The translations under genes and the position numbers were made by a program. A stretch of 64,000 bases of DNA. It comes from Pseudomonas phage PaBG. Below the pieces are notes generated by a model, which worked only from the letters and a program-made list of their open reading frames with translations, was not told where the DNA came from and did no database searches. Shown one piece after another: positions 3,353-50,474 of the stretch. Position 1 is the stretch's first letter. Each line of letters starts with the position of its first letter. The stretch lies in the sequence record KF147891.1. One strand, written 5' to 3'.

Positions 3353-3773
3353 ACGGGTTCTCCAGAGCACGGCGCAGCTCGACACTGCGGATGGGTTCTT
3401 GGTCAGCGACCGCTGCTGTGATTGCCATGCAGATGGCGTGCATTTCGGTGTAGTAGCCGCTGGTATCGACCTTGACGGTAAACTCACCACCACCAAGCCC
3501 GAAGCGCATGCCGATGACTTCAACGGAACACGGGTTCACCTTGAGGTCGTAACGCTTCGCAGCCAGCAGCATCATCGCCTGCTGGATATTGTTCGCAGGA
3601 TCAAACTCCAGCGTCAATCGGATGCTGCGATCAACGCTCATCGGGTCGATGTACGTCGCCATCCAACGGCCAGAGTTGGGTATCCCAGGTTGCAGCGGGT
3701 CGGGCTTCCACACAATCGGCAAGCCAACAGCCTTAGCTGCGCGTTCCACCATACGCTTGTATTGACTGTGCAT
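3339..3773 (-). CDS. hypothetical protein (~145 aa)
   Basis: ATG at 3773 overlapping stop of upstream gene (TGATG); Gly-rich central segment. Confidence 0.4.
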   Translation of the reverse strand: MHSQYKRMVERAAKAVGLPIVWKPDPLQPGIPNSGRWMATYIDPMSVDRSIRLTLEFDPANNIQQAMMLLAAKRYDLKVNPCSVEVIGMRFGLGGGEFTVKVDTSGYYTEMHAICMAITAAVADQEPIRSVELRRALENPYEQH

Positions 3774-4375
3774 CACTTCACCCCAGGCTTCTTGTCTTCG
3801 ATGGAAGTCCACTCAAACCACACCTCGTACTCGCCAGGTTCGTTCAACCAGTAACTGAGTTCGAGGCCGGTGATATGGCCGAGTTCGTTGGTCTCGTTCT
3901 GCAGGTGTGTGACCGCACCCCAGCTGCCGTCTTCCCGTTCGCGCTTGAGTTCGCTGATCGGACAGCCTGGAATCATCTTGCCATCGACGTTCTTGAGGAT
4001 GCTGACCTGCGTTTTCCACGGGTCGCATTCTTTCGGGTACGGCACCTGAACAGTGGCAGGCACGTCGATCTTGAACGCGCTAGAGATACGGCGCTGCACC
4101 TCGTACACAGGCTTGCAGGACATAACCACGGCAGGCGCAGTGATCAGTGTGTGCGTACGGCGATCGGTGCGAACGTAACGCGCATAACCGCCGTAAGTTG
4201 ACGCCAGATGACGCGGACATGCTTCGTTGCGCTCAAACTCGAAGATGGTCGGACCTAGGGCATACTCCTTAGGCCAGGTATAACCGCCGTTGTACCCGAA
4301 GCTAACGCCAATCAACAGGTAGTCTTTGTGGCGTTGGTCTACGCTCATGGCGCTGTGCGGAATAATCAAACTCAT
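3773..4375 (-). CDS. hypothetical protein (~200 aa)
   Basis: ATG 4375 with GGAG RBS (ggataaGGAGtttgcagATG); first gene downstream of conserved 23-bp box at 4453-4475. Confidence 0.55.
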   Translation of the reverse strand: MSLIIPHSAMSVDQRHKDYLLIGVSFGYNGGYTWPKEYALGPTIFEFERNEACPRHLASTYGGYARYVRTDRRTHTLITAPAVVMSCKPVYEVQRRISSAFKIDVPATVQVPYPKECDPWKTQVSILKNVDGKMIPGCPISELKREREDGSWGAVTHLQNETNELGHITGLELSYWLNEPGEYEVWFEWTSIEDKKPGVK

Positions 4376-4404
4376 CTGCAAACTCCTTATCCTTACCAAT
4401 AGGT

Positions 4405-4413
4405 GTAACCACT
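4405..4413 (-). promoter_or_regulatory. AGTGGTTAC box 39 nt downstream of conserved box
   Basis: Same 9-mer at identical spacing (40 nt) after copy 3. Confidence 0.4.
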
Positions 4414-4452
4414 ATGCCATAGAGAACTTGCGCTCTCGCACGTCCAGTTTAG

Positions 4453-4475
4453 CATAACTGCAATCAGTAGTCTAC
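4453..4475 (-). promoter_or_regulatory. conserved 23-bp box, copy 1 (GTAGACTACTGATTGCAGTTATG)
   Basis: Near-identical copies at 5160-5182 and 20624-20646; intergenic; ~80 nt upstream of ATG 4375. Confidence 0.5.
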
Positions 4476-4492
4476 GGCGATAGCGGTTATGT

Positions 4493-4954
4493 TTATTGCT
4501 GAGGTTTCTCTCGCACCGACTCGACGGTGAAGCGCAGGTTGCCTTGCAGCGACATAACCAGCAGGCGAATCAAATCGGCAGTGTACCCGAGCCGCCGATG
4601 GGCGTTGTTCAATGCGTTTGAAACGATGTTGGTTTCCGTCGTGGAAATCTCTGCCAGCACTTTGCCGATGGAGTTGCGCGCCTGCGTTGCAAAGATCGTG
4701 ACCTGCATCGCCAGCGCTTGATACAGTGTTGCCTGTTGCCTGACATCGAACTCGATCTGGATAGGCAAGCGATCTTGCCAACCGTTGTCAACAATGGCGT
4801 GCAGTCGGCGAACAGCACGTCCGGTTGGGCAGTTTCCGAGTACACCATACTGGCCAATTAGCGGCTGCAAGATGTCTACAGCCCAAGCGCGATGTATTAG
4901 GCACTCTTGTACAGCCTGACCGGCCTGATCAATTACTTTGAAGTTGAGGTTCAT
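4493..4954 (-). CDS. hypothetical protein (153 aa)
   Basis: Strong RBS AGGAGAAGG before ATG 4954. Confidence 0.55.
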   Translation of the reverse strand: MNLNFKVIDQAGQAVQECLIHRAWAVDILQPLIGQYGVLGNCPTGRAVRRLHAIVDNGWQDRLPIQIEFDVRQQATLYQALAMQVTIFATQARNSIGKVLAEISTTETNIVSNALNNAHRRLGYTADLIRLLVMSLQGNLRFTVESVREKPQQ

Positions 4955-5162
4955 TGCCTTCTCCTGCGTCGCTCCAGTAATACGCCATGATCGAAGTAAC
5001 AGTTCGTCCGACCTCGCGTTGCGCTTGCTGGTCGACCGTTGGCAGCTTGTTCCACCAGTTCATGGCAGCACGCATACGGTCTACGGTTGACGTGCATTTG
5101 GCGTTCCTAGCTCGATGAGCAGCCAGCCTATCGAACCATTCTTTCTCTGTCATCTGTTCCAT
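4929..5162 (-). CDS. hypothetical small protein (77 aa), possibly leaderless
   Basis: ATG is the last 3 nt of the conserved 23-bp box; no SD; overlaps next gene by 26 nt. Confidence 0.3.
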   Translation of the reverse strand: MEQMTEKEWFDRLAAHRARNAKCTSTVDRMRAAMNWWNKLPTVDQQAQREVGRTVTSIMAYYWSDAGEGNEPQLQSN

Positions 5163-5182
5163 AACTGCAATCAGTCGTCCAC
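5160..5182 (-). promoter_or_regulatory. conserved 23-bp box, copy 2 (GTGGACGACTGATTGCAGTTATG)
   Basis: Immediately downstream of terminator 5189-5228; its ATG coincides with start of ORF 4929-5162. Confidence 0.5.
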
Positions 5183-5188
5183 AGTGGA

Positions 5189-5228
5189 TAAGAAAAAGGC
5201 GGTGGGACCGCTAGATCGCACCGCCTTG
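5189..5228 (-). terminator. intrinsic terminator
   Basis: 9-bp stem AAGGCGGTG/CACCGCCTT with loop, followed on coding strand by TTTTTCTTATC. Confidence 0.7.
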
Positions 5229-10402: not shown

Positions 10403-10465
10403 TGATCACTTCCTCGATGTTAGTGGTTTCCGATGGGCACTGTCGCCAATGCCCAAACGAAACGA

Positions 10466-11308: not shown

Positions 11309-11850
11309 CAGTCGTCGTCCTCGCGGTAGCCGTCGGCAATCTTCTCGGCCAGCTCCGGATAGAGTTTGAAGATTTCGTCCTTGCGCGCGTTGAGCTCCTT
11401 GATTTCGCGGCTCAGACGCTTGCTGACCTTCATATCGCCGTAGCGACCTGCCAACTTCTCGCTGACCTTCTGGTCCTGCAGAAGCTCAGCCAGCTTCTGG
11501 TTGATGTCTTGCAGTTCAGTCACCGCCACGGCTTCGTCAACCAAACCAGCATAATGGACGAGCTGCTGCCAGTCGTAGCCCAGTTTCTTGAGCATGCCGC
11601 GGAAGCTGACTCGCGGATCGGTGCTTGGTCCGTCTGCGTGAGCCTTGCGCGGCTTTCTCGGCAGTTGGCGCAGCTCCAAGAACGGAGCGACCAGAAGGCG
11701 CAGTTGATCCGCGGTCAGAGGCGAAACGTGCGGCTGGAGCAGCTTCTCCATGGCATCCAGCACTTCGCCCATGTCCTCGCTGTTCATATACGGGTGCAGC
11801 AGATCGGCAAACTCGCTGCGCAGAATCAAAATGGTTTTCTGCGTGGTCAT
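11308..11850 (-). CDS. hypothetical protein (180 aa)
   Basis: ORF, helical, acidic C-terminus. Confidence 0.45.
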   Translation of the reverse strand: MTTQKTILILRSEFADLLHPYMNSEDMGEVLDAMEKLLQPHVSPLTADQLRLLVAPFLELRQLPRKPRKAHADGPSTDPRVSFRGMLKKLGYDWQQLVHYAGLVDEAVAVTELQDINQKLAELLQDQKVSEKLAGRYGDMKVSKRLSREIKELNARKDEIFKLYPELAEKIADGYREDDD

Positions 11851-12713
11851 TGCGCATTCTCCTTGTTATAGCTCGGCAGACTGGCCAGGTCTTCGCCGGT
11901 GATGAATTGGTAGAACTCGCGGCTGGGCAACACACCTGCTTTCAGGTAAGTGGAATAGCCAGCAGGCCAGCGCCAGTCGCGGAAGAAGAACTCAGTTGAG
12001 CCGTTAGCTTCGCCAGTCCAACGATGTTGACTCCAGCCGCGGTAACGATTCACCAGCGCCAGATGTTCAACTTCGGCGAGACGCAGCAGAAACTTACCCT
12101 TGGCAACCTTATCGTAGCCGCGCGCTGTGGTGACTACAGGGAACGGCAGCGTGTCGTCCCGAGTGAAGTTTACGTTCTGGCGCCAGAAGCCAGCGCGCTT
12201 GCCTTCCCAGTTGAGCAAGCGGCCATTGTCGTTGATAACGTCCATGGCCTGCTTACCTTTAGGTGCCTTACCCTTCTTGAAGAAGAACGCGGGCTTCACC
12301 TTGGTCTGGAGTTCTTTCGGACGCGGGTCCTTGGACGGACGCGCTTTGATTTCGGCGTTCAGGGCTTTAACGTCCTGCTGCGGCTTGATCAGCAGTTGAA
12401 GCACCTTATACTCGTCCAAGCGCAAGCCGCCGCGCTGCAAACATTTGACACCCCACGCATCGGTGAGGACCACGTCGTTGACTTCACCCAACACCTCGCA
12501 CTCGCAGAGTGTCGTCTTGCCCTTCACCTCGGTTTCCCACAGCGCCGTCAACGGGTCCATTTCTCCAGTTGGGGAATACACGGCGTGTGTGCAGCCCTTC
12601 GGGAGTTTCGGGATTTTGCCACGCAGCGCACCGTGCAGCATACGCATCAGCGCAGGCATGTTGATGATGTGGAATTTCGGCTCTTGGACTTTCTTGGCAG
12701 TCTTGACGCCCAT
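11847..12713 (-). CDS. lysine-rich basic protein (~288 aa)
   Basis: ATG 12713 with GAGG RBS; very K-rich (KGKAPKGK, KVKPAFFFKKGK) suggesting nucleic-acid binding; preceded by perfect 12-bp hairpin. Confidence 0.45.
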   Translation of the reverse strand: MGVKTAKKVQEPKFHIINMPALMRMLHGALRGKIPKLPKGCTHAVYSPTGEMDPLTALWETEVKGKTTLCECEVLGEVNDVVLTDAWGVKCLQRGGLRLDEYKVLQLLIKPQQDVKALNAEIKARPSKDPRPKELQTKVKPAFFFKKGKAPKGKQAMDVINDNGRLLNWEGKRAGFWRQNVNFTRDDTLPFPVVTTARGYDKVAKGKFLLRLAEVEHLALVNRYRGWSQHRWTGEANGSTEFFFRDWRWPAGYSTYLKAGVLPSREFYQFITGEDLASLPSYNKENAQ

Positions 12714-12749
12714 GTTCGTTAACCTCATCTATGATTGTCACCATTGAGC

Positions 12750-12783
12750 AAACTGGTAGTGGTTGCTCTCGCACTACCAGTTT
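12750..12783 (-). promoter_or_regulatory. perfect 12-bp stem hairpin in 5' region of gene 11847-12713
   Basis: AAACTGGTAGTG-N10-CACTACCAGTTT, no U-tract; contains AGTGGTTGC; second AGTGGTTAT at 12815-12823. Confidence 0.4.
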
Positions 12784-12832
12784 AACACAACCGCGATTCG
12801 ACGTATACCCAGTTAGTGGTTATATCCGTAGC

Positions 12833-13288
12833 TTAGGTATTCGCCCTACGGATGATCAGGCTGCCACGTTCGCGGATCGTACGGTAGCAGGCACGTTGTA
12901 TCGTGGCGTGCAGACGGCCGAGGCTAAATTCGGCGTTGCACTCGATGCTGGCGCAGATGTCCTCGCCCAGGAGTTTGTCACCGAGCATGGTGCGCAACTC
13001 GAAACTCAGGCGACGGTTGACGTTACTGGACGACTCGATTACCACGGAGTACAGCTCCAGAACTTCGCGCAGTTTGAACTCGACAACCAGGTTCTCGCCG
13101 CCGGCGGTATCATCCGCGAACTGGTGCAGCTCGGGAATCAGATCACGCAGATGGCTGGAACTGAACATCGGCACCACGTACGGGCGCAGCGCGTGTGCGA
13201 GCTTGGACAGGTTACTCGCCTCCATCGCAGCGACAGAGTGCGGGCGCTTGTCGTGCAGGCCCTTGAAGCAAAATTCGATCTGGCTCAT
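12833..13288 (-). CDS. hypothetical protein, tandem paralogue A (151 aa)
   Basis: AGGAGA RBS; shares KPYV and C-terminal SLIIR motifs with adjacent gene 13297-13764. Confidence 0.5.
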   Translation of the reverse strand: MSQIEFCFKGLHDKRPHSVAAMEASNLSKLAHALRPYVVPMFSSSHLRDLIPELHQFADDTAGGENLVVEFKLREVLELYSVVIESSSNVNRRLSFELRTMLGDKLLGEDICASIECNAEFSLGRLHATIQRACYRTIRERGSLIIRRANT

Positions 13289-15114: not shown

Positions 15115-15407
15115 TTCCCCTCCTTCGCTTGGCGTTCTTGGTACCATTCTGGTTTGGCAAAGCGGTCGGAGAACGAGTAGCTGTCCTCAGGATCGCCGCC
15201 CATGTCGATGTTGAGAGCATCCGGCCACAGCTTGAGGAGTTGCTCCTTGCTTTCGACGTAAGCGATCAGGATGGAACCCTCGGCGCTGTAACCACTGCAC
15301 CAGTACGGGTGATCGATCGGCCAGGTGACCGGACGATAGTCATCTTCCGGCACCGTGAAGCGGGCGCGATATACAGGCTTGCCGTTGTACGTCTTTTCGG
15401 TGTGCAT
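15111..15407 (-). CDS. hypothetical protein (98 aa)
   Basis: GGAG RBS. Confidence 0.45.
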   Translation of the reverse strand: MHTEKTYNGKPVYRARFTVPEDDYRPVTWPIDHPYWCSGYSAEGSILIAYVESKEQLLKLWPDALNIDMGGDPEDSYSFSDRFAKPEWYQERQAKEGK

Positions 15408-15730: not shown

Positions 15731-16017
15731 GGGTTCTCCACTTTCCAGCGCAAGAAGTGTTCTGGGCGATGATACATTGTGTTGCCACCGCCCGTAGATC
15801 GGATCAGGATTCCTGCGGCCTTGCCGTCATCCACGAAGAACACAGAGTCTGTGTCGGGCTTGGTCAGACGGACAGGACGACGCACAAACACCAACTGATA
15901 CTCTGCCGTGGGTCCCATCTGCTTTTTCATGGAGCGTGCCATGACTTGCACACCAACCAGATACAGAAGAACGGGAGAAACAACGGCACCAGCCACGAAG
16001 CCAATGAGGAGGCTCAT
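15727..16017 (-). CDS. small membrane protein (~97 aa)
   Basis: ATG 16017 overlapping Nudix stop; N-terminal TM MSLLIGFVAGAVVSPVLLYLVGV. Confidence 0.4.
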   Translation of the reverse strand: MSLLIGFVAGAVVSPVLLYLVGVQVMARSMKKQMGPTAEYQLVFVRRPVRLTKPDTDSVFFVDDGKAAGILIRSTGGGNTMYHRPEHFLRWKVENP

Positions 16018-16460
16018 TAGTCCATCAACTCCCGTGCTTTGCGAGCCTCGTGCTCGAAGTTGGCCTCGATGGCGTCCAGCACGTCGTAGATGTACGGGGC
16101 CAGATACTGGTCGACCTTGTCCATGGCTTTCTCGGCCTTGAACCACTTGCGCTCACGCTTTTCCATTTCCGGCCAGTCGTCAGCGTCTTTGACGTACTGC
16201 ATGGCGTACATGGTGACTTCTTGCATCTGGCCATTCTTGACGTAACGGTAGCTGCCGAGCTTCTGGCCAACATCGCCGAGGACGCCGGCCTCTTCGTAGA
16301 CTTCTTTCGCCGCGCTGGCGCGCTCAGTCAGATTGATTTCGACACCGCCCTTGGGGAACACCCATTCTTTGCCGTTGCTGGAAGTGACCAGCAGAATTTC
16401 AATCTTGTTGGAGTCAGTGATACGGAAAACCACACAGCCGGAAGATTTACGAGTACGCAT
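16017..16460 (-). CDS. Nudix hydrolase (147 aa)
   Basis: Nudix box PKGGVEINLTERASAAKEVYEEAGV (GX5EX7REUXEEXGU); GGAG RBS. Confidence 0.8.
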   Translation of the reverse strand: MRTRKSSGCVVFRITDSNKIEILLVTSSNGKEWVFPKGGVEINLTERASAAKEVYEEAGVLGDVGQKLGSYRYVKNGQMQEVTMYAMQYVKDADDWPEMEKRERKWFKAEKAMDKVDQYLAPYIYDVLDAIEANFEHEARKARELMD

Positions 16461-19917: not shown

Positions 19918-20508
19918 TTACTCGCCACGACGATGGCGAGTGTGCAGTGCAACGAGCAGGTCATCTACCAGTTCGCCAACGTCGTCTTGGATATACGCAC
20001 GCAGGTCACGAACTTTTGCAGCCACGGTAACAGCATCCGAATTTTCAAGGATGCGCTTGAACGAAAGGCTGCGACCGTAGGTGTGGCTGAACGGCTTCAA
20101 CACCGCCTTGTTGTTGATCAATTGTGCAGTCAGAACACGACTGCCGTTAGATTGCAGCTCCAGTGTAACTGTGGCGACCGCACGCCCAAACTTCTTGGAG
20201 ACGATGCTCAGGACGTTGTCCTTACGCACAAGGCGGAACATTGCATCGTCACGAACCAACAGGCGCAGCTCGGACATACCGAACAGGCGGGTGATGCTCA
20301 GACGCGAAAGCAGCGCGCTGGTCTCGGCAGCCCGTTGTTGTGCGCGGGTCAGCGGCTTGGTCGAGGCAGCAGGCTTGCGTACTTGAGGCTTACGCGGTGC
20401 TTGCTTCTCCATGCGCAGTTCGCACGCAGCGAGGTGCTTCTTGTTGCCGAGTACAAACTTGTCGGCAGCGGCTTTCATGGAGGCGATAACGGATTCGGTA
20501 GTTTTCAT
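19918..20508 (-). CDS. hypothetical protein (196 aa)
   Basis: AAGGAG RBS; first gene downstream of conserved box + AGTGGTTAC box. Confidence 0.55.
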   Translation of the reverse strand: MKTTESVIASMKAAADKFVLGNKKHLAACELRMEKQAPRKPQVRKPAASTKPLTRAQQRAAETSALLSRLSITRLFGMSELRLLVRDDAMFRLVRKDNVLSIVSKKFGRAVATVTLELQSNGSRVLTAQLINNKAVLKPFSHTYGRSLSFKRILENSDAVTVAAKVRDLRAYIQDDVGELVDDLLVALHTRHRRGE

Positions 20509-20574
20509 GGAGAGACTCCTTACATGTTCGTAATGTGCAAACTTTTTGGCGTCTGCTTTACCTTAACTAAGATC

Positions 20575-20583
20575 GTAACCACT
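20575..20583 (-). promoter_or_regulatory. AGTGGTTAC box 40 nt downstream of conserved box
   Basis: Matches 4405-4413 arrangement; an inverted copy lies at 20711-20719 on the plus strand. Confidence 0.4.
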
Positions 20584-20623
20584 ACTGGTTGAGCAGGGTC
20601 AGACTTTCGTAGTGTCATTATCT

Positions 20624-20646
20624 CATAACTGCGATCAGTCGTCTAC
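20624..20646 (-). promoter_or_regulatory. conserved 23-bp box, copy 3 (GTAGACGACTGATCGCAGTTATG)
   Basis: In 256-bp intergenic region downstream of terminator 20731-20764. Confidence 0.5.
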
Positions 20647-20730
20647 AGACTTAATGGAAATATTTGTAGTTAAGGTATGTAGCGACCGTACTGCGGTGAC
20701 TCGCAAACGCAGTGGTTACGGAGATAGCTG

Positions 20731-20764
20731 AGGAAACGAAAAAGGGAGCCCGAAGGCTCCCTTG
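20731..20764 (-). terminator. conserved-family intrinsic terminator
   Basis: Perfect hairpin GGGAGCC-CGAA-GGCTCCC preceded on plus strand by ggaaacgaaaaa. Confidence 0.75.
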
Positions 20765-21100
20765 TCATAGCACCATGCCGATGCGAACCAGATACAGCTT
20801 GCCTTGGACGTGCAAACTTTTCTGGTCAGTGATTTCGTATGGCAGCAACAGGCCGGCATACTTGCGCCACTTCTTGTCCAGATACTTCACAGCATCCGGC
20901 TTGGTGATCGCGGCATTGAACACCTCGAACCGCTTCCACTGCTTCTCAGTCAGCTCATCCCCGTTGACTGTCAGACCGCGCAGAGCTTGCAGCGCTTTGA
21001 GCACCTTCTTATCCAGCTCCTTGTGGTCTGGGATGAAGAACATCTGGATGCCCTCGGGGATGGTTTCGTAGGTCAGCAGAATCGAACGGGACTCACTCAT
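20765..21100 (-). CDS. hypothetical protein (111 aa)
   Basis: ORF followed by perfect hairpin terminator. Confidence 0.5.
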   Translation of the reverse strand: MSESRSILLTYETIPEGIQMFFIPDHKELDKKVLKALQALRGLTVNGDELTEKQWKRFEVFNAAITKPDAVKYLDKKWRKYAGLLLPYEITDQKSLHVQGKLYLVRIGMVL

Positions 21101-21641
21101 AGTCGAGTGCCTCGTAACGGTGCGTTGTGAACAGCTTGTGCTCTGCTATCTGCTCCACTTGGTGGAACTTCGGAGGCAGCGGCGGCATGAAGGTATCGCC
21201 GACGTAGCTGTACGTCAGGTGCGTGATGATCGCCTCATCGACGTGCACCTTACCTTCGAAGGCCGCTTCGTACAGGCTCTTACCGCCGATGATAAACACT
21301 CGGCCGTCTTCGCTCAACTGCACGGCTTGTTCGACCAGGCGATTCAGGTCGTCGCTGACGGTGAACAGCTTGATGTGGTCGAAGTTGACAGAGGTGACGT
21401 CCTGCGTGAGCACGCACGGGGCTCGCGTCTGCCAGACCGAACGCGGCATGGACTCGAACGTGCGGCGACCACAGATCAGTGGACTGGTGCCAGTGATCTT
21501 CTTGAACAGCGCCAGTTCTTCTGGGATGTGCCACGGCAGTTTGCCCTTGTCGCCGATGCAGTCGTTTGCAGCCACTGCGGCGATGAGGATAACCTTCGGA
21601 GTCTTCTCAGCTTCCACTGGTTGTTTCTTCTTAGTAGGCAT
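21093..21641 (-). CDS. folA: dihydrofolate reductase (~182 aa)
   Basis: VILIAAVAANDCIGDKGKLPWHIPEELALFKKITGTSPLICGRRTFESMP ... VFIIGGKSLYEAAF are hallmark DHFR motifs; AGGAAG RBS before ATG 21641. Confidence 0.85.
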   Translation of the reverse strand: MPTKKKQPVEAEKTPKVILIAAVAANDCIGDKGKLPWHIPEELALFKKITGTSPLICGRRTFESMPRSVWQTRAPCVLTQDVTSVNFDHIKLFTVSDDLNRLVEQAVQLSEDGRVFIIGGKSLYEAAFEGKVHVDEAIITHLTYSYVGDTFMPPLPPKFHQVEQIAEHKLFTTHRYEALDYE

Positions 21642-22086
21642 CCGGGTCTTCCTCGCTGTGTGCGCGACGCAAAGCCGAGAAGCCTTGCTGCAGGTGAGTG
21701 TTGGCAATGTTCAGCCAGCGGCCGTGTCCGCCCTGAACCAAATTGCGCGACATATCGACAGCATCTTTCGACAGTTGCGCGGCTGCATCAATCAGCAGCT
21801 CGATTTCCGCACGTACGGCTTCTTCGCGCTCGCGGATTTCGTTACCATCGATGGCGACTGTCATGCGGTTACCGCCAGTGAAGAACTCGACGTTCACACC
21901 GCCAGATCGAGGATTCCCAGCGACGGAGAAGCCCTGCCCGATCATCGGATGCACGTTGGCATTCAAGTGCGCACTCATTTCACGGTACAGCACTTCGTCC
22001 ATTTGCTGACCCTGGAAGACAGCCAGACGATCAGCCAGAATCAACTTCGCTACGTCGGCAGAGACGTTCAGATTGAGATGGGTCAT
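21631..22086 (-). CDS. hypothetical protein (~151 aa)
   Basis: Strong AGGAGG RBS before ATG 22086. Confidence 0.5.
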   Translation of the reverse strand: MTHLNLNVSADVAKLILADRLAVFQGQQMDEVLYREMSAHLNANVHPMIGQGFSVAGNPRSGGVNVEFFTGGNRMTVAIDGNEIREREEAVRAEIELLIDAAAQLSKDAVDMSRNLVQGGHGRWLNIANTHLQQGFSALRRAHSEEDPDAY

Positions 22087-22523
22087 TATACCTCCTGAAG
22101 GGTGTTGACGCGCCACGGGGCGGAAACAGATGAGGGCGACAGATCGGGCGAACCTGGCAAGCACATATCGCCACGTTGCAGCGACTTGTTCATGGACTCT
22201 GCGAAAGCCATGCCTGTTGCTTCGAGTTTACCCACAGGCATGGCACATGCGTAGATCGCAATGCCAATTCGCGGATCACTGTGGTAGGCATTCTTGGGCG
22301 CTACGATATTGCTGGGTAGCACATGGCGACCTCGCTTATCGATGCCAAGCTGCGAACTCACTGCGACCAGTTTGAGCTGGGCGTCTTCATCGATGTGTAG
22401 CACGACGAAAACATCCACAAGCGTCTGGCCATTCGCTTGGTGCAAACCCTTGGGATGGTACCAGGTGATTCTGCGACTAGCCCGACGACCGCACAGAGTG
22501 GTGCGATAGCGTTCCTGTTTCAT
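22086..22523 (-). CDS. hypothetical protein (145 aa)
   Basis: AGGAG RBS. Confidence 0.5.
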   Translation of the reverse strand: MKQERYRTTLCGRRASRRITWYHPKGLHQANGQTLVDVFVVLHIDEDAQLKLVAVSSQLGIDKRGRHVLPSNIVAPKNAYHSDPRIGIAIYACAMPVGKLEATGMAFAESMNKSLQRGDMCLPGSPDLSPSSVSAPWRVNTLQEV

Positions 22524-22659: not shown

Positions 22660-24198
22660 TCATCCCATGAGAATCCAGTCGAGCGAGACCACCTCGTCGA
22701 TGGCTTCGGCTATCGCTTCGTCCACGTCAATCCGCAGATCGCCGCGCTCCATGAAAACCCCAACGTCGAACGAACGATCCTGAGCTCCGTTGATTGCGGA
22801 CATCGGGAACTTCAGGTGCAGCACGCAGTTCTGCGCATCCGCCTGGAAGAACCGCTCGACGGGTGGTGTGACCATTCGATGGGTCACGAAGTGGTGCATT
22901 ACTTCCGACGCACGCTGCTGCAGGCTGAACCAGAAGCTGAGGTCGAACGGGCTGCCTTTGTCGCTATAGTCGCGGACATACTTGCTGACTTCGCGCAGCA
23001 CCGACACAACAACGATCAAGTCTGGAAGGACACCGCCGCGAACTGTTCGATTGCCCCAGACAACAGGGCCGCACATAGGCACCTGCCCGACGTAGTTCAT
23101 GCCATTCAGCGCGACGGTGTCACGCCAAGCTGCCGAACGCGGTTGCTTCCAGTCGAATTTGAATCGATCCAGGGCTTTGTCCGTCTTAGCTCCTGCAAGA
23201 GTACCGCCGACCTCCATCAGAATTGAGCGGATGGCCTCACTCGCCTGATCGATGAATATGTCGTTCGCGTTGATGCAGTACCACAGACCGACCTTGGGTT
23301 TGAGAGTTGCGTCGGTCGTGACATTGATCTTGAGAGGCGGGAACTCGATCTGCGAACTGGATGCGCTTTGGACTTCAACGATCTTCTGAATAGGATGCGT
23401 ATCCAGAGTCGCCACGTGCTTGGTGCAGCCGCGCAAGTTGTCGCGCCGAGTCTCCCACGGTCCTTTGGATTTCAGAGTGCGCTCTTGCACAGTGATCGAC
23501 TTCATGAGGACCATAGCCTCGTCGTAAGTCAACACGTCCTCACTCGCAGAACCCCAGCAATGCCTCCAGAGGTTCCACACCTCTTGGTACCCTGCAGGAT
23601 TCCAGCGACCAATCGCGTAATGTCCAGCCACACCATCCGCACGATCTACCAGATACGGCACCCAAGGCGTTTTGGTTTTCGCAGGCTTATCGGCATTGAT
23701 GCACGCAGGACACGTCGGACGAGAACCGCCCCAGAGTTCTTCTGGAGTGTACTCGCCGGAGTTGAGCAGCTCCAGATCACGCGCGGTTGGAACGCAGCAA
23801 AGAACGGCACTACTGTTCGTATGCGTGAACAGCAAGGCACGGAAGTCTTCGTGTTCAACGATCTGTGCAGCTACCCGTTCGTGCATGTTGCCGGCATCTT
23901 CACCTTGAGCGAAAGCGCGCTTCCACGCTTCTGCGGACAGCGCACTCGGGACCTGCAATATCGGCACGAAGCCCCACGCATCTGGACTGGGCTCCATGCG
24001 GTCCAAGAAATTGGCAAGCGACTTGCTCCACTTCTTGCCATTCATGCCGATATAGCTCACCGTGATCGGGTATTCCTCGTTACGGCCCGGATCAGCTTCC
24101 GCGTTCGTGATGTCATACACGGTGTAGCTGATCTTGTTCTTTTTGTGCACCCACGGACTACCGATTCGTGGAATGCCATTCTCGTCGCAGTTCATCAT
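22660..24198 (-). CDS. large protein with DUF1653-like N-terminus and uncharacterised ~430-aa body (512 aa)
   Basis: N-terminal ISYTVYDITNAEADPG...EYPITVSYIGMNGKKWSKSLANFLDRMEP resembles DUF1653; remainder unassigned. Confidence 0.5.
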   Translation of the reverse strand: MMNCDENGIPRIGSPWVHKKNKISYTVYDITNAEADPGRNEEYPITVSYIGMNGKKWSKSLANFLDRMEPSPDAWGFVPILQVPSALSAEAWKRAFAQGEDAGNMHERVAAQIVEHEDFRALLFTHTNSSAVLCCVPTARDLELLNSGEYTPEELWGGSRPTCPACINADKPAKTKTPWVPYLVDRADGVAGHYAIGRWNPAGYQEVWNLWRHCWGSASEDVLTYDEAMVLMKSITVQERTLKSKGPWETRRDNLRGCTKHVATLDTHPIQKIVEVQSASSSQIEFPPLKINVTTDATLKPKVGLWYCINANDIFIDQASEAIRSILMEVGGTLAGAKTDKALDRFKFDWKQPRSAAWRDTVALNGMNYVGQVPMCGPVVWGNRTVRGGVLPDLIVVVSVLREVSKYVRDYSDKGSPFDLSFWFSLQQRASEVMHHFVTHRMVTPPVERFFQADAQNCVLHLKFPMSAINGAQDRSFDVGVFMERGDLRIDVDEAIAEAIDEVVSLDWILMG

Positions 24199-24818
24199 GG
24201 CTTCAACCCCAAAATGTTGGCGTAGATACCGACATCGCGGCTTACACGGCCGCTCCAGCCGTAGTAAAATTCCTCGTCCTTCTGGCGCTTCTGGACGAGC
24301 TGCAGGTAGTGATGGCCTTGCTCAGCAAGTAGCGCGATGAGCATTCGGTTGACACCTTCAGCACCGCGCTTGGCGATGTAAGCATCGAGCGCTTTGAGGG
24401 TCTTGTCTCCGATCCAGCCATCGACTTTCAGGTCGGCGTACAGCGTACCCTGATTGTTGTTGGCGTTGAGCACCTGCTGGAAATACGACCCGGCGGTGGT
24501 CACGCCCATGTTGATCGCCATGTCGAACAACTTGTCGGCAAACAGCGCGTGACGCTTCATCAGATCGTCAGCATACAGGCGCGACCAGAAGTGGGTCTCG
24601 TACAGCCAGTAGGCCATATCGATGCTCAGGTTGCGCATCGTGCCGTCCCAGCCGAACTGCACAACTAGCTGGTCACGGTAGTCGTTGGCGAGAGCAGCAG
24701 TAATGCCATGGTTGGTCTCACCGCCGCTGTCCTTCTTGTTGTTGACGTAGCCGCCTTCGACCGCAGTCTTGTCTGCGATGATGGCACGCGGAGTGAAGTC
24801 TGCGTACTTGGAGAGCAT
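24195..24818 (-). CDS. endolysin, GH108-type muramidase with PG_binding_3-like C-terminus (~207 aa)
   Basis: TPRAIIADKTAVEGGYVNNKKDSGGETNHGIT matches GH108 signature (EGGY...D.GG.T..GIT). Confidence 0.7.
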   Translation of the reverse strand: MLSKYADFTPRAIIADKTAVEGGYVNNKKDSGGETNHGITAALANDYRDQLVVQFGWDGTMRNLSIDMAYWLYETHFWSRLYADDLMKRHALFADKLFDMAINMGVTTAGSYFQQVLNANNNQGTLYADLKVDGWIGDKTLKALDAYIAKRGAEGVNRMLIALLAEQGHHYLQLVQKRQKDEEFYYGWSGRVSRDVGIYANILGLKP

Positions 24819-25387
24819 CAGTACAAGCCTCCGTCTACGCCAGTCTCGAACGTGGTCTTCACGCTCTCGGACATGATGACAGGATAATCGTCCGGACCGC
24901 CGGCACAGCCGATGTTCAGCGTGGGCATACCCATGAGGCCGAGAATCCACTTGTCCGGTACTTGGCGAGCGCGCACGCAGGCGATCTGCTTGCGGTCAAT
25001 CAGCATCTTCTCGGCGTTCTCGAAGCCGCTGCGGCCCACGTCGATGATGTTGATGATCTTCTGGTAGATGGCAGGATCGGGCGCGACGTTGTGCTCTTTC
25101 AACATCAGGACGTAAGCCTTGTAGCCGCCATCGCCGGAACGCGCCTTGATCTGCTCGGTAACGGTCTGCTTGATGTCATCCACGCTGAGCTGGCGAATGC
25201 CGATCACCTCTTTCACCTTCTGGCTGAGGTTGTTCAGCACGGTTTGGCGCGAACGGTCGGAAGCAATGATGCCTTCCTCGATGTTCACGTAACCGTTGTA
25301 CTTGGAGACGAAGACGATCAGCAACAGTGCGGTCAGCGCACCGAGGACCATAGACACGACGAGGCCGGAGCCTTTTTGATTGTTCAT
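24818..25387 (-). CDS. LemA-like membrane protein (189 aa), tentative
   Basis: N-terminal TM (GLVVSMVLGALTALLLIVFV) then SKYNGYVNIEEG...QTVLNNL pattern resembling LemA family; lysis-cassette position. Confidence 0.35.
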   Translation of the reverse strand: MNNQKGSGLVVSMVLGALTALLLIVFVSKYNGYVNIEEGIIASDRSRQTVLNNLSQKVKEVIGIRQLSVDDIKQTVTEQIKARSGDGGYKAYVLMLKEHNVAPDPAIYQKIINIIDVGRSGFENAEKMLIDRKQIACVRARQVPDKWILGLMGMPTLNIGCAGGPDDYPVIMSESVKTTFETGVDGGLY

Positions 25388-31535: not shown

Positions 31536-31556
31536 AGTTCACCTCTGACTGTAGTT

Positions 31557-31592
31557 TACAGAAAGCGAAAAGGCGACCCTAAGGCCGCCTCT
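31557..31592 (-). terminator. conserved-family intrinsic terminator
   Basis: GGCGACC-CTAA-GGCCGCC preceded by cagaaagcgaaaa. Confidence 0.7.
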
Positions 31593-31596
31593 TGCG

Positions 31597-33550: not shown

Positions 33551-33600
33551 TCGATTGGCTTCCATGTTGGGTTGAACAGCGATACTCGTTTACAGTTCCG

Positions 33601-33637
33601 CAGAAACGAAAATGGGAACCCGAAGGCTCCCATTTTC
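33601..33637 (-). terminator. conserved-family intrinsic terminator
   Basis: TGGGAACC-CGAA-GGCTCCCA flanked by cagaaacgaaaa and TTTTC. Confidence 0.75.
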
Positions 33638-46752: not shown

Positions 46753-48339
46753 TTACTGCGTACGGTCGTTGACGCTGATGGCGTACTGAATCTGACCGGT
46801 GCGCGGCACGATTGCGTTCAGGTGGATACGCTTGGCAATCATCATCGGATCGACGTAAACGTCGAGGACACAATCACCGGACGCTTCCAGCTCGGGCGGG
46901 TTGTTGCTGGAGTCGCAGATGATCTCGTAGCCATACAGACCACGGCCACGCTTGACTGGACCCAGAATGTCTTCGGCGATACCAGAGAGCTGCAGGCGCA
47001 GCGTGGCATCGTTTTGCTCGAACACACCCGCGAGGGCAGCGATCTTCAACTGGGCCATCAGGCTGTTCATCAGGCGGCGAACGTGAATGTTCGATAGCGC
47101 AGACGCGAAGCCTTGCAGGGTCTCTTGCGACCACAGTACCAAACCGTAGTTCGGCATCTTGTGGATGAAGTTGACCTGGTTCTGATCCAGCGTGTCACGG
47201 TCGCCTTGCTTGTACACTTGGCGAACGCCGTTTGCCAGAATCTTACCGCGGGTCACACCCGCAGGTGCGAACCACTCGGCAGCGACGCGATCGGTCCGAG
47301 CGTAGCACGCGGCGACATAGCCCGAGGGCGGGCAGAAGATCGTCACGTTGTCTTCGTTGGTGATCGACAAATCCGGCGTGTAGATGCCGGCGAAGGAGCT
47401 GCTCAGGTTCAGCGTGTTGCGGCGGTAAGCCACAGCTTGCTGGGTGCTCTGGAAGTCTGAAGGCATATCGAGAATGGCGAACGCATCGCCACGCTGTTCT
47501 GCCACTTCCGCCATCTTCAGGTGCACTGCCGGAGAGGCATAGCCGCCGTTGATCAGCAGGGTGACAGTGATTTCCTCGGTGTCCGCGTAGGCGTCCCAGC
47601 CATCGATGATGTCGTCCATCGTGATGGCGTCACCGTCATTGCCGTGAGTCAGATCACCAGCGATAACCGAGTTCACCAAGCGCACGCGCTCGTTGTCACG
47701 GTACTTCGGATGGTCACGATTCACGCGGGCGCGCAGGCGGGAGCTTTTCTGCTCCAGTTGATCTTCGATGCTCAGTTGGCGGCCGTAACCATCGACAGTC
47801 TCGCGCAGGGTAGCGCGGTAACTTTCGACGGCGATAGTGGCGCTGCCTTCGTAGACATCGAGGACGAACAGTTCGTTGGCGATATCGGAAGTGTCCGGGT
47901 ACGCCACGATGCGCAGGTCGTTGTTCCAGTTGCCAGGGTCAGCAGCGTACAGGAACAGGACATCGTTCTCGTTGAAGGAGTAGTCGTCGGGAGTATCGAA
48001 ACCCTCGACGCTGTTCTGGATGGTTGCGAACTCGTTGACAGTGGCGATCCGTACAGAACCGAACTTGGCGTTGCGGGCCACGCGCAGGTAGTACAGTTGG
48101 CTGGCTTCCGACAAGAACTGCTCCGCACAGAAGTGTGCGAAGGTCAGCTTAGCGTCAGGCGCGCCGAACTTGGATCGGAAGTTTTTCTTGTCAACCGTGA
48201 GTGTCGGTACACCGACAGGGCCGCGCTTCGACGGGCCCACCATGGCACCAATCGACGACGAAACGGCGACACCGCGGACCGACTGGTCATCGATGGCACC
48301 GTAAACGCCGGCGCTGGAGCTGCTGCCGTTGTTCAACAT
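46753..48339 (-). CDS. contractile tail sheath protein (528 aa)
   Basis: Sheath-family signatures (GVYGAIDDQSVRGVAVSSSIGAMVG; ...MPNYGLVLWSQETLQG...); GGAGA RBS. Confidence 0.85.
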   Translation of the reverse strand: MLNNGSSSSAGVYGAIDDQSVRGVAVSSSIGAMVGPSKRGPVGVPTLTVDKKNFRSKFGAPDAKLTFAHFCAEQFLSEASQLYYLRVARNAKFGSVRIATVNEFATIQNSVEGFDTPDDYSFNENDVLFLYAADPGNWNNDLRIVAYPDTSDIANELFVLDVYEGSATIAVESYRATLRETVDGYGRQLSIEDQLEQKSSRLRARVNRDHPKYRDNERVRLVNSVIAGDLTHGNDGDAITMDDIIDGWDAYADTEEITVTLLINGGYASPAVHLKMAEVAEQRGDAFAILDMPSDFQSTQQAVAYRRNTLNLSSSFAGIYTPDLSITNEDNVTIFCPPSGYVAACYARTDRVAAEWFAPAGVTRGKILANGVRQVYKQGDRDTLDQNQVNFIHKMPNYGLVLWSQETLQGFASALSNIHVRRLMNSLMAQLKIAALAGVFEQNDATLRLQLSGIAEDILGPVKRGRGLYGYEIICDSSNNPPELEASGDCVLDVYVDPMMIAKRIHLNAIVPRTGQIQYAISVNDRTQ

Positions 48340-50440: not shown

Positions 50441-50474
50441 AGAAATGAAAGTGGCGACCCTAAGGCCGCCACAG
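50441..50474 (-). terminator. conserved-family intrinsic terminator
   Basis: GTGGCGACC-CTAA-GGCCGCCAC preceded by cagaaatgaaa. Confidence 0.75.

Follow-up and report, generated by a model that had tools for sequence, protein, structure and literature searches.

T4-type phages carry mobile regulatory cassettes, the promoter-early stem-loops or PeSLs (PMC2839356, PMC4122927), in which the stem-loop forms a local terminator beside the promoter. The Correia repeat-enclosed elements (CREE) of Neisseria are likewise promoter-carrying and, in the outline given by PMC2649163, are enclosed by inverted repeats and co-transcribed as a hairpin that can be bound or cleaved by RNase III. CREE are chromosomal MITEs with 26-bp terminal repeats, target duplications and promoters formed at the element ends. 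Many lytic phages use sigma-70 extended -10 (TGn) promoters for their early genes. In P22, Arc binds an operator located between the -35 and -10 elements of Pant.

We compared these systems with a repeated element of the Pseudomonas jumbo phage PaBG. The window, that is, the whole stretch of DNA analysed, comprises 64 kb of the 258-kb genome. Neither PaBG paper reports promoters, and our literature search found no transcription-start, timing or polymerase-dependence data for this phage. The 2014 genome announcement states that PaBG encodes its own RNA polymerase, while the 2020 re-annotation describes phage sigma factor(s) and no RNA polymerase core; on the latter account the host core polymerase would therefore be needed for transcription.

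Like PeSLs, the PaBG elements are repeated, composite and intergenic, carry a predicted sigma-70-like early promoter, lie in ORFan-rich plastic regions beside gene indels between relatives, and show possible signs of recombination in the form of chimeric leaders and assembly-breaking exact repeats. Two of them, copies 2 and 3, have a terminator-like hairpin ahead of them, and copies 1, 4 and 5 have none. They differ from PeSLs in that their arms enclose the promoter from both sides instead of forming a local terminator beside it; the phage lineages are unrelated and the motif sequence is different. With CREE, as outlined in the source cited above, they share an intergenic position, a length class of ~100-150 bp, enclosure by inverted repeats, promoter elements and predicted folding upon co-transcription. 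In contrast to CREE, PaBG has arms of 10-14 bp, or up to 30 if mismatches are allowed, around a promoter in the middle of the unit; signs of transposition are absent and RNase III cleavage is hypothetical. The element is best read as a repeated early-promoter/leader cassette of ~130-200 bp, PeSL-like and with a Correia-like RNA hairpin, and we put the probability of a promoter at roughly two in three.

The cassette is recognized by a 23-bp box, three copies of which were reported in the original prediction. A search of the window with the pattern GTAGACKACTGATYGCAGTTATG, allowing up to 3 mismatches, returns these three sites only, all on the minus strand, against a chance expectation of 0 and no match in 100 dinucleotide-preserving shuffles (Table 1). 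The consensus first given for the box fits copies 1 and 3 without mismatch and fails in copy 2, which reads GTGGAC. The original prediction missed a diverged fourth copy, GTATACGTCGAATCGCGGTTGTG, which together with its -10 spans 12779-12808, and a fifth lies ~3 kb beyond the window start and thus outside the window. A weight-matrix scan of the 64 kb finds only four copies, all at 4-21 kb in an ORFan-rich region, and no copy in the structural module. All copies lie on the coding strand, each ahead of a gene start, and a Shine-Dalgarno sequence follows 3' of every copy except copy 2. The claim that well-placed ribosome-binding sites follow the element is borne out for the genes starting at 4375 and 20508, and copies 2 and 3 do lie behind terminators, as had been noted.

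Table 1 Components of the PaBG cassettes in the 64-kb window; transcription starts are predicted.
Feature	Position	Strand	Remarks
Copy 1 box GTAGACTACTGATTGCAGTTATG	4453..4475	-	0 mismatches to GTAGACKACTGATYGCAGTTATG; -35 TAGACT 4469-4474; dyad ACTG-ATTG-CAGT; TG 4453-4454
Copy 1 -10 TAAACT	4446..4451	-	17 nt from TAGACT; nAnAnT kept in orthologues
Copy 1 predicted transcription start	near 4439 (+/-3)		
Small hairpin GUGC-GAGA-GCGC	4430..4441	-	predicted transcript 5' end
Copy 1 left arm IR-L ATAACCGCTAT	4480..4490	-	pairs with 4405-4415 (10 bp, one of them G.U)
Copy 1 right arm IR-R ATAGTGGTTAC	4405..4415	-	includes 9-mer; ~+25 to +35 of predicted transcript
9-mer AGTGGTTAC	4405-4413	-	39 nt 3' of box 1
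Copy 1 outer upstream arm AACCTCAGCAATA	4494..4506	-	overlaps preceding gene's stop codon; pairs with 4391-4401 (minimum-free-energy structure)
Copy 1 outer downstream arm TATTGGTAAGG	4391..4401	-	directly 5' of Shine-Dalgarno
Copy 1 downstream gene	3773-4375	-	Shine-Dalgarno AAGGAG 4383-4388; ATG 4373-4375
Terminator GGCGGTGCGATCTAGCGGTCCCACCGCC + T-run	5190..5225	-	intrinsic; immediately upstream of copy 2
Copy 2 box GTGGACGACTGATTGCAGTTATG	5160..5182	-	1 mismatch to GTAGACKACTGATYGCAGTTATG (GTGGAC); followed by AACAGA; last 3 bases, ATG, start 77-aa gene 4929-5162
Lone arm-like motif AACCACTA(AC)	10421..10428	-	19 nt upstream of ATG at 10402; no box; family membership uncertain
Copy 4 box GTATACGTCGAATCGCGGTTGTG	12786..12808	-	diverged; TG kept; -10 TAAACT 12779-12784; ahead of gp020 (11847-12713)
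Copy 4 predicted transcription start	near 12772		
Copy 4 upstream arms	12813..12838	-	ACCTAAGCTA 12829-12838 (overlaps preceding stop codon); TATAACCACTAA 12813-12823
Copy 4 local hairpin AAACTGGTAGTG/CACTACCAGTTT	12750..12783	-	12 bp, perfect; at predicted transcript start
9-mer AGTGGTTAC	15288-15296		within ORF; probably a chance occurrence
Terminator AAGGGAGCCTTCGGGCTCCCTT + T-run	20742..20763	-	intrinsic; upstream of copy 3 cassette
Copy 3 distal left arm TTTCCTCAGCTA...CGTAACCACTGC	20709..20736	-	inner 12 nt pair with 20574-20585
9-mer AGTGGTTAC	20711-20719	+	coding strand reads GTAACCACT; upstream of box 3
Copy 3 box GTAGACGACTGATCGCAGTTATG	20624..20646	-	0 mismatches to GTAGACKACTGATYGCAGTTATG; -35 TAGACG 20640-20645
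Copy 3 -10 GATAAT	20617..20622	-	TG precedes; scan 9/12 plus TG
Copy 3 predicted transcription start	near 20610		
Copy 3 right arm	20559..20585	-	GTAGTGGTTACG 20574-20585 (contains 9-mer) and TAGTTAAGGTA 20559-20569
9-mer AGTGGTTAC	20575-20583	-	40 nt 3' of box 3

We consider it likely that the box supplies two-thirds, namely the upstream part, of an extended -10 promoter of the sigma-70 family. It is comprised of a -35-like hexamer, TAGAC(G/T), and a 17-nt spacer with a terminal TG, and one base 3' of it stands a -10 hexamer with A2 and T6 in all copies but copy 2: TG-C-TAAACT in copy 1, TG-A-GATAAT in copies 3 and 5, TG-T-TAAACT in copy 4 and TG-A-TACACT in the L023 orthologue, with TG-G-AACAGA of copy 2 failing the A2/T6 pattern. 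The original prediction saw no resemblance to a sigma70 -35/-10 pair, having overlooked the hexamer that lies immediately 3' of the box and completes the predicted promoter; given TAGAC(G/T), a TG-ended spacer of 17 nt and TAAACT or GATAAT, that claim is wrong. Its proposal of a phage-specific promoter class accordingly loses the premise of being unlike sigma-70, but stands as regards both the promoter and its restriction to PaBG-like phages. The -35 (TAGACT or TAGACG) matches the consensus at 4/6 positions and lies exactly 17 nt from the -10 in copies 1, 3 and 5; in copy 4 it is TATACG, with 3/6 matches. Taken together the hexamers score only 7-9/12 against the sigma-70 consensus, the -35 carrying A in place of the consensus T in every copy. 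A promoter scan calls copy 3 (TAGACG-17-GATAAT, 9/12 plus TG), and sigma-70-like sites in general are not enriched in the window. TG-n-(nAnAnT) is nevertheless kept in copies 1, 4 and 5 and in all orthologues despite changes of the hexamer among TAAACT, GATAAT and TACACT. The cassette shares with extended -10 promoters the -35-like hexamer, the 17-nt spacer, the TG and A2/T6, as well as a coding-strand position with a leader and ribosome-binding site 3' of it; unlike typical extended -10 promoters, its spacer is conserved across paralogues and distant orthologues, and its -35 reads TAGAC rather than TTGAC.

Copy 2 departs from this pattern. As AACAGA has no T at position 6, copy 2 is without a -10, and we found no inverted-repeat arms around it. 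The boxes had been described as always intergenic, which does not hold here: the last three bases of the copy 2 box are the ATG of a 77-aa ORF, itself conserved, and were the promoter active, transcription would start within that gene. Copy 2 is probably a relic or a partial cassette.

In an alignment of 15 copies, box positions 4-6, 8-11, 13, 16-20 and 22-23 are invariant. Among five copy-1 orthologues, the leader from the 5' hairpin to the right arm is almost unalignable and the box is conserved, and the box is retained almost unchanged in a relative whose neighbouring gene is 58% identical at the protein level; these alignments indicate that the box is under purifying selection. Searches with the cassette and its region by megablast and blastn against 50,697 phage records, a collection that does not include PaBG itself, returned nothing, and Lu11 and HRDY3 have no cassette-like sequence in common with it. 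A 22-nt degenerate box has 0 matches in IMG/VR and the JGI metagenomes, and among 185,579 GTDB genomes the box is absent but for one match in a Cardinium endosymbiont chromosome, judged to be chance. A 16-mer core gives 16 IMG/VR matches, all of them single and none with the remainder of the box, and these were set aside as chance. The reading as a promoter is well supported, and the class is specific to one family, the PaBG-like phages. The neighbouring genes are almost devoid of Pfam or PHROG matches; homologues of the gene after copy 5 occur in unrelated phage genomes and are uninformative on the cassette.

A plain sigma-70 promoter needs no spacer this conserved, and something else therefore appears to read the spacer as well. 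Within it lies a dyad, ACTG-N4-CAGT, with invariant arms and a 4-nt centre that varies (ATTG, ATCG, TTTG, ATTA). It is possible, as the original prediction also offered, although we give this less than even weight, that the dyad serves mainly or additionally as the operator of a phage repressor, the candidate being an Arc-family ribbon-helix-helix protein that would shut off the cassettes jointly; such a role is compatible with a promoter. The invariance of the dyad arms around a variable centre fits an operator, as does the retention of the box in copy 2 in spite of its missing -10. As with the Arc/Mnt-type operators of P22, the short dyad lies between -35 and -10 and an Arc-family gene is found in a cassette-driven operon, namely that of copy 5, where an Arc-domain gene (Pfam E = 4.9e-20) is present in three lineages ~8 kb downstream of copy 5. 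However, a small hairpin would equally give invariant arms and a variable centre, copy 4 has lost the dyad and kept its promoter features, and the link to the Arc gene is one of co-location only. The P22 operator and the candidate operator of PaBG have no sequence similarity beyond chance.

Less probable is that the promoter serves a phage sigma-70-family factor (PaBG gene 118, possibly gene 112), making the cassettes a middle class with the invariant -35 and spacer as the specificity determinant. PaBG-group phages do encode their own sigma-like factor(s), the box is conserved far beyond what host sigma-70 requires, the deviation of the -35 from TTGACA is identical in every copy, and no other site of comparable kind comes up when the window is scanned for generic sigma-70 promoters. 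Yet the -10 varies freely inside the sigma-70 pattern, and TG with a 17-nt spacer is classical housekeeping-type architecture. Early genes for host takeover are typically small ORFans, as are the genes driven here, and middle promoters would need another starter promoter, none of which is visible in the window. Most likely, the promoter would be read by the host RNA polymerase holoenzyme and fire early.

The second half of the original prediction concerned a 9-mer, AGTGGTTAC, placed downstream of box 1 by 39 nt and of box 3 by 40 nt, where we also find it; the window holds four occurrences against 0.22 expected. The bipartite arrangement at fixed spacing is real, as the TGGTT core of the right arm lies 41-42 nt from the box in 13 copies. 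For the 9-mer itself, however, the 3' arm of a promoter-bracketing inverted repeat is a better explanation than a second promoter box. Being on the plus strand and upstream of box 3, one of its occurrences is the inverted partner of the box-3 9-mer, overlooked in the original prediction, and more generally a 5' arm, ATAACC(G/A)CTA or GTAACCACT, lies upstream of the -35. The inverted repeat comprises 10-14 bp and can be extended to 26-30 nt at 73-77% complementarity; a repeat tool reports arms of 11-30 nt, 73-100% complementary, spanning the promoter in all copies except copy 2. Outer arms add ACCTnAGCTA near the preceding stop codon and TAGnTnAGGT beside or within the Shine-Dalgarno region, and the 8-mer TAGTGGTT occurs five times, always intergenic, against 0.75 expected. 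In copy 3 the whole left arm is a 26-nt inverted repeat of 73% complementarity, and TAGTTAAGGTA is perfectly complementary to TACCTTAACTA at 20667-20677. Copy 4 is without the right arm, in whose place its local hairpin stands; a downstream arm read from the sequence, TAGATGAGGT (12722-12731), is complementary to ACCTAAGCTA at 8/10 positions. The copy-5 arms of the ERR13718896 lineage are only partly complementary.

Several observations point to pairing of these arms in RNA. In the true register 71.9% of cells are paired, versus 29-46% with the register slid; CG, GC and UA pairs all occur in one helix column, some arm changes are compensatory, and RNAalifold picks the same helix independently. 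The covariation is modest, its observed score being reached by 29/500 shuffles with n=9 sequences. Compared with shuffles, read-through RNAs fold at z -3.16 for copy 1, -3.85 for copy 5, -2.90 for copy 3 and -3.24 for a copy 3 orthologue, with folding no better than chance in L023 (z -0.5) and L035 (z -1.6). For copy 1 and its orthologues the leader on its own has a z near 0, and only the hairpin of copy 4 stands out, on which grounds a structured 5' UTR alone was rejected. The small hairpin at the predicted 5' end has a stem that sequence comparison finds conserved in orthologues and paralogues, with a loop of 4 to 6 nt; since its changes are one-sided only, it displays no true covariation. 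RNA pairing alone does not explain the constant 41-42 nt offset between box and right arm. DNA looping between operator half-sites is not favoured either, because the arms, 77-78 bp apart in copies 1 and 5 and 136 bp apart in copy 3, share no helical phase and the compensatory changes would be left unexplained. A sigma-dependent pause or Q-type element at the 9-mer was rejected, TAGTGG and TATTGG lacking the T6 of a -10-like pause signal, and Rfam 15 gives 0 matches at the gathering threshold across the whole window.

The same inverted repeats raise the question of whether the element is a promoter at all, as opposed to a MITE-like or structured-RNA repeat in which the box is kept for an RNA or recombination function. 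The arms enclose the element, the whole unit folds at z near -3, the box is partly paired in some predicted structures, and the copies may recombine: the copy-1 leader of L018 is a chimera with copy 5, in one lineage copies 1 and 5 share 32 identical nt, and Logan contigs L018-L020 and L030-L034 begin or end within the box. Beside copy 1, PaBG and its closest relatives (L025-L028) have a 153-aa gene, which has its 3' end visible in L022 and is absent from L017 and L023. The copies are few (4-5), however, and each has a syntenic position in relatives. We saw no target-site duplications flanking the arms, and the absence of Rfam matches and of the box from GTDB, IMG/VR and the JGI metagenomes likewise speaks against such a repeat. 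Moreover, the predicted pairing partners of the box differ between copies, so pairing cannot explain its sequence invariance, and it would be left to coincidence that every active-looking copy has TG-n-nAnAnT at the correct spacing of 17 nt. We regard a repeat without promoter function as improbable.

Far less credible is an inverton, in which a recombinase would flip the promoter between the repeats. Arms of 10-14 bp do bracket a promoter segment of roughly 55-125 bp, but the orientation is the same in every copy and in several independent assemblies, the arm sequences differ among copies and are ill-suited to a single recombinase, no recombinase domain occurs among the ~50 window proteins scanned, and as all genes run in one direction, a flipped promoter would be antisense. 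Least credible is that a single-subunit RNA polymerase of the phage uses the element as a T7-type promoter and starts inside the 3' end of the box: the contiguous 23-bp block has the size of T7-, T3- and SP6-type promoters and is repeated ahead of gene blocks as they are, the 2014 announcement credits PaBG with a polymerase, and the ATG at the end of the copy 2 box could give a leaderless mRNA, but the PaBG promoter is bipartite, sigma-type and variable in its -10, the 2020 re-annotation lists sigma factor(s) and no single-subunit polymerase, the conserved -10-like hexamer would fall downstream of the start without a role, and box-ATG ORFs are not conserved. Leaderless mRNA from the box ATG was rejected in its own right, the reading frame being 20 codons in copy 1 and stopping immediately in copies 3 and 5.

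Under the favoured reading, a repeated early-promoter/leader cassette, each copy would stand at the head of a group of small, functionally uncharacterized genes, with copies recurring at intervals of about 7.5 kb in a co-directional array. The predicted transcript would begin ~14 nt past the box, form a small GNRA-type hairpin at its 5' end and reach a strong ribosome-binding site after 55-100 nt. When transcripts from upstream genes read through the cassette, both halves of the inverted repeat could pair, looping out the promoter segment as a long interrupted hairpin; transcripts from the cassette's own promoter would lack the 5' half and stay open. Most likely, the helix would mark read-through RNA either for RNase III-type processing or for a change in the translation or stability of the first gene. 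The promoter itself is ordinary and its packaging is unusual: inverted repeats that enclose a promoter, keep a fixed geometry and show compensatory changes are uncommon.

More speculatively, the parts may form a dual-layer device in which the promoter sits in the loop of the helix, read-through RNA is cleaved, silenced or re-coupled, an Arc-like repressor shuts all cassettes, and the repeats shuffle ORFan blocks. Because the helix would form only in transcripts from upstream, the phage could thereby distinguish RNA initiated at the cassette from RNA that reads through it. We consider the complete device doubtful; if true, it is undescribed for phages, and if functional, the arrangement would reveal by what means internally initiated and read-through transcripts are kept apart in a phage whose gene arrays are long and co-directional.

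For PaBG and its 'Lupandier' relatives, neither promoters nor a transcription programme had been described, and the cassette offers a first concrete, testable promoter set that delimits the likely early, host-takeover gene blocks. A candidate second promoter class, CTGTAAAC, which lies 3' of two terminators, was rejected, its two occurrences being its only ones and not above chance. The cassettes may behave as recombining repeats, with chimeric leaders and a gene indel adjoining one copy, and the exact repeats fragment short-read assemblies of PaBG-like phages at predictable places.

Searched as a degenerate 23-mer, the repeated 23-bp element (the box) matches just the three originally noted sites at ≤3 mismatches, with 0 matches in shuffled sequences. 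The consensus first proposed for it holds for copies 1 and 3 and fails for copy 2, which has GTGGAC instead of GTAGAC. As described, the 9-mer AGTGGTTAC lies 3' of boxes 1 and 3 (at 39 and 40 nt, respectively), terminators precede copies 2 and 3, and copies 1 and 3 are followed by ribosome-binding sites. The claim that the element is unlike a sigma70 -35/-10 promoter overlooked a -10 hexamer one base 3' of the box (TAAACT in copy 1, GATAAT in copy 3). On the coding strand the box reads T-A-G-A-C-(G/T) followed by 16 conserved bases ending in TG; together, box and hexamer give a -35-like hexamer and a -10 hexamer separated by a 17-nt spacer that carries the extended -10 TG. Copy 3 was called independently by a promoter scan (TAGACG-17-GATAAT, 9/12 with TG), and copy 1 scores 8/12 with TG, slightly below the scan threshold.

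Additional copies exist. Reading all intergenic regions revealed the diverged copy 4 ahead of gp020 (GTATACGTCGAATCGCGGTTGTG, then T, then TAAACT), and L025, a Logan contig with identical PaBG proteins that reaches past the window start, bears copy 5 (ATAGACTACTGTTTGCAGTTATG and, after an A, GATAAT) at ~3.0 kb from position 1. The five copies are spaced by 7.8, 7.6, 0.7 and 7.5 kb along one co-directional gene array, and no further copy occurs in the 10.9 kb after copy 5. A weight-matrix scan of the 64 kb gave no additional copy above noise; since the matrix was derived from the known sites, this shows only the absence of further copies.

Contigs of relatives, reached through homologues of the flanking genes (58-94% protein identity), retain this sigma-70-type extended -10 architecture, repeated and in the correct orientation. 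In the 15 copies compared, the invariant positions of the box are 4-6 (GAC), 8-11 (ACTG), 13, 16-20 (CAGTT) and 22-23 (TG) and variation is limited to positions 1-3, 7, 12, 14-15 and 21, while the post-box hexamer alternates between TAAACT, GATAAT and TACACT, always keeping A2, A4 and T6. Among five copy-1 orthologues, the ~20 nt from the 5' hairpin to the downstream 9-mer are almost unalignable. Such a pattern would be expected if a sigma-70-family factor recognizes the element as a promoter and something further constrains the spacer. Box and -10 together are repeated exactly in several relatives, over a length sufficient to break k-mer assemblies: the box contains the starts of contigs L018-L020 and L030-L034 and the ends of L018 and L019, one of these breaks being the end of a 139-kb contig, so the cassette (promoter, leader and flanking arms) systematically fragments k-mer assemblies of PaBG-like phages. 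In a distant relative, L036, whose gp038 homologue is 38% identical, the box is absent from the 45 nt of upstream sequence present; this contig also carries three 209-aa and three 125-aa genes within 3.4 kb in a tandem-duplication-like arrangement.

Box copies and genes discussed in the text (window coordinates unless a contig is named)
Feature	Position	Strand
Box, copy 1	4453-4475	-
Box, copy 2	5160-5182	-
Box, copy 3	20624-20646	-
Box, copy 4	12786-12808	-
RlaP-family nucleotidyltransferase	1194-2066	-
153-aa gene	4493-4954	-
77-aa ORF	4929-5162	-
gp020	11847-12728	-
NUDIX hydrolase	16017-16460	-
gp038	19918-20508	-
DHFR	21093-21707	
177-aa protein	21631-22164	-
gp043	22660-24198	-
GH108 + PG_binding_3 endolysin-like protein	24195-24950	-
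Tail sheath	46753-48339	-
Arc-family protein (cassette-driven operon, outside window)	L028:17891-18307; L030:6514-6906; L032:7346-7729	

Exact protein matches, among them the tail sheath, gp043, gp038 and gp020, assign the window to PaBG. The PaBG genome comprises 258,139 bp, and its nearest records in the phage collection searched, from which PaBG itself was absent, are Lu11 and HRDY3 (~59% major-capsid identity). All plausible window genes lie on the - strand, with structural genes in the right half (about 36-64 kb) and, from ~21 kb down to position 1, nearly all small genes without family assignment. Assignable genes are rare in the non-structural half; among them are the nucleotidyltransferase, NUDIX hydrolase and endolysin-like genes. 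The 177-aa protein, encoded adjacent to DHFR on its upstream side, has a sub-threshold match to the hairpin domain of Acb2/Tad1, a family of anti-CBASS/anti-Thoeris sponges (23.8 bits vs a cut-off of 27, E = 5e-5).

The window contains five occurrences of the 8-mer TAGTGGTT, each of them intergenic, against 0.75 expected; three of the five lie on the + strand, so that the coding strand reads AACCACTA, and two of these three sit in the copy-4 cassette. Judged from sequence, the 9-mer belongs to an inverted repeat, of which it forms one arm. The arms of this repeat pair over 10 bp including one G.U in copy 1 (upstream TAACCGCTAT, downstream ATAGTGGTTA), 12 bp in copy 3 (CGTAACCACTGC and GTAGTGGTTACG), 11 perfect pairs in L022 and 12 perfect pairs in copy 5 (AACCAATAGCAC and GTGCTATTGGTT), where several positions have changed simultaneously on both sides relative to copy 1. 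With a repeat-finding tool, the complementarity could be followed outward over 26 nt in copy 3 (73%) and 30 nt in copy 5 (77%), with an outer upstream arm, ACCTnAGCTA, near or overlapping the preceding gene's stop codon and an outer downstream arm, TAGnTnAGGT, adjoining or inside the Shine-Dalgarno region. The outer helix of copy 3 is kept through different pairs in the window and in its orthologue L027 (AGCUA/UAGUU in one, CUAAG/CUUAG in the other). The box lies 41-42 nt from the TGGTT core in 13/13 copies having the core, despite loop lengths of 4 to 6 nt in the small leader hairpin; TGGTT stands 22 to 68 nt from the start codon. In copies 1, 4 and 5, 13 nt separate the start of the left arm from the box; in copy 3 the distance is 71 nt, and the canonical place keeps a decayed arm-like sequence. 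A lone left-arm motif, AACCACTAAC (coding strand, 10421-10428), lacking box and partner arm, follows a small GGGCA...TGCCC hairpin 19 nt upstream of an ATG at 10402.

RNAs spanning both cassette halves, as in read-through transcripts arriving from upstream genes, gave folding z-scores of -3.16 (copy 1), -3.85 (copy 5), -2.90 (copy 3), -3.24 (L027), -2.39 (L022), -1.6 (L035), -1.4 (copy 4) and -0.5 (L023). RNAs beginning at the predicted start gave values near 0 for copy 1 and its orthologues, and the extra stability is therefore due to pairing across the promoter: the inverted repeat encloses the promoter and confers excess RNA fold stability. In an arm-anchored alignment of nine copies, the true register gives pairs in 71.9% of cells vs 29-46% for slid registers, and RNAalifold chose the arm helix as the main feature of six whole cassettes. 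A single column shows CG, GC and UA pairs, and 29/500 shuffles matched the observed covariation score, which makes support for the helix suggestive, not decisive. Non-Watson-Crick pairs in the arms are mostly G.U in the sense strand, which, though their count is small, fits RNA better than DNA.

Copy 2 departs from this plan. After its box comes AACAGA, lacking T at position 6, and the flanking arms are absent; in the closest relative its box carries 3 changes vs 0-2 in other copies. The boxes had been described as always intergenic, which fails here, as the terminal ATG of copy 2 opens a conserved and clearly coding 77-aa ORF (third codon positions hold 24/32 differences vs L017), within which a start ~14 nt past the box would land. 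We take copy 2 for an incomplete or decayed cassette that may have been kept as an operator. The 77-aa gene overlaps the next gene by 26 nt and is overlooked by gene callers in several relatives. That next gene, of 153 aa and directly upstream of copy 1, is an indel among relatives: PaBG and its closest relatives have it, L022 shows its 3' end, and L017 and L023 lack it. Short AACCTCA direct repeats flank it. In the relative from sample ERR13718896, copies 1 and 5 have 32 identical nt in common, including GATAAT where PaBG copy 1 has TAAACT, and the leader of copy 1 resembles copy 5 towards the 5' end and copy 1 towards the 3' end; the L035 copy-5 leader bears a copy-3-like right arm. These mosaics, the 32-nt identity and the indel are apparent signs of inter-cassette recombination.

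Taken together, the cassette is a real, previously undescribed family of predicted promoters of PaBG-like phages. An early-type sigma-70 promoter cassette is nothing out of the ordinary, but the conserved inverted-repeat packaging is unusual. The 2014 PaBG announcement reported no regulatory elements, and the 2020 PaBG paper mentions promoters once, in a general sentence. At its core the cassette has a predicted extended -10 promoter of ordinary type. The cassette's closest likeness is to the PeSLs of T4-type phages, which are likewise promoter cassettes repeated within ORFan-rich, plastic regions, although PeSLs combine a promoter with a local terminator hairpin (PMC2839356, PMC4122927) whereas here arms enclose the promoter. 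In its enclosing arms and its RNA hairpin the cassette is reminiscent of the Correia elements of Neisseria (PMC2649163), but it bears no sign of transposition. An inverton and a known RNA family were rejected as identities, as was a T7-type promoter; the 2020 paper reports a sigma-70-like factor of the phage (gene 118 and perhaps gene 112) and no RNA polymerase core.

We propose that host RpoD holoenzyme would initiate ~14 nt past the box early in infection, giving a transcript whose 5' end would form a GUGC-GNRA-GCRC hairpin, with 5'-end protection possible. Read-through RNA would instead fold the cassette into a long interrupted hairpin and might be processed or translated unlike promoter-initiated RNA. 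The invariant spacer dyad ACTG-N4-CAGT may be an operator, for which an Arc-family ribbon-helix-helix protein (Pfam E = 4.9e-20), which three lineages encode ~8 kb downstream of copy 5, may be the regulator, linked to the dyad by position only; it appears to be the protein that the PaBG paper names AlgZ-like. The main value of these results is a testable map of PaBG early transcription units, along with a candidate mechanism distinguishing read-through from locally initiated transcripts.

The motif CTGTAAAC at 31554-31561 and 33588-33595 (-) follows two terminators ahead of gene starts and may represent a further promoter class consisting of a -10 alone, but its two occurrences are not above chance. 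Two pairs of near-identical intrinsic terminators, 20742-20763 with about 33600-33625 (-) and 31568-31593 with 50451-50472 (-), have the sequences GGGAGCCTTCGGG(C/T)TCCC and GGCGGCCTTAGGGTCGCC and similar T-rich tails (TTTCGTTTC, TTTCGCTTTC, TTTCATTTC), so the terminators are likewise a repeat family.
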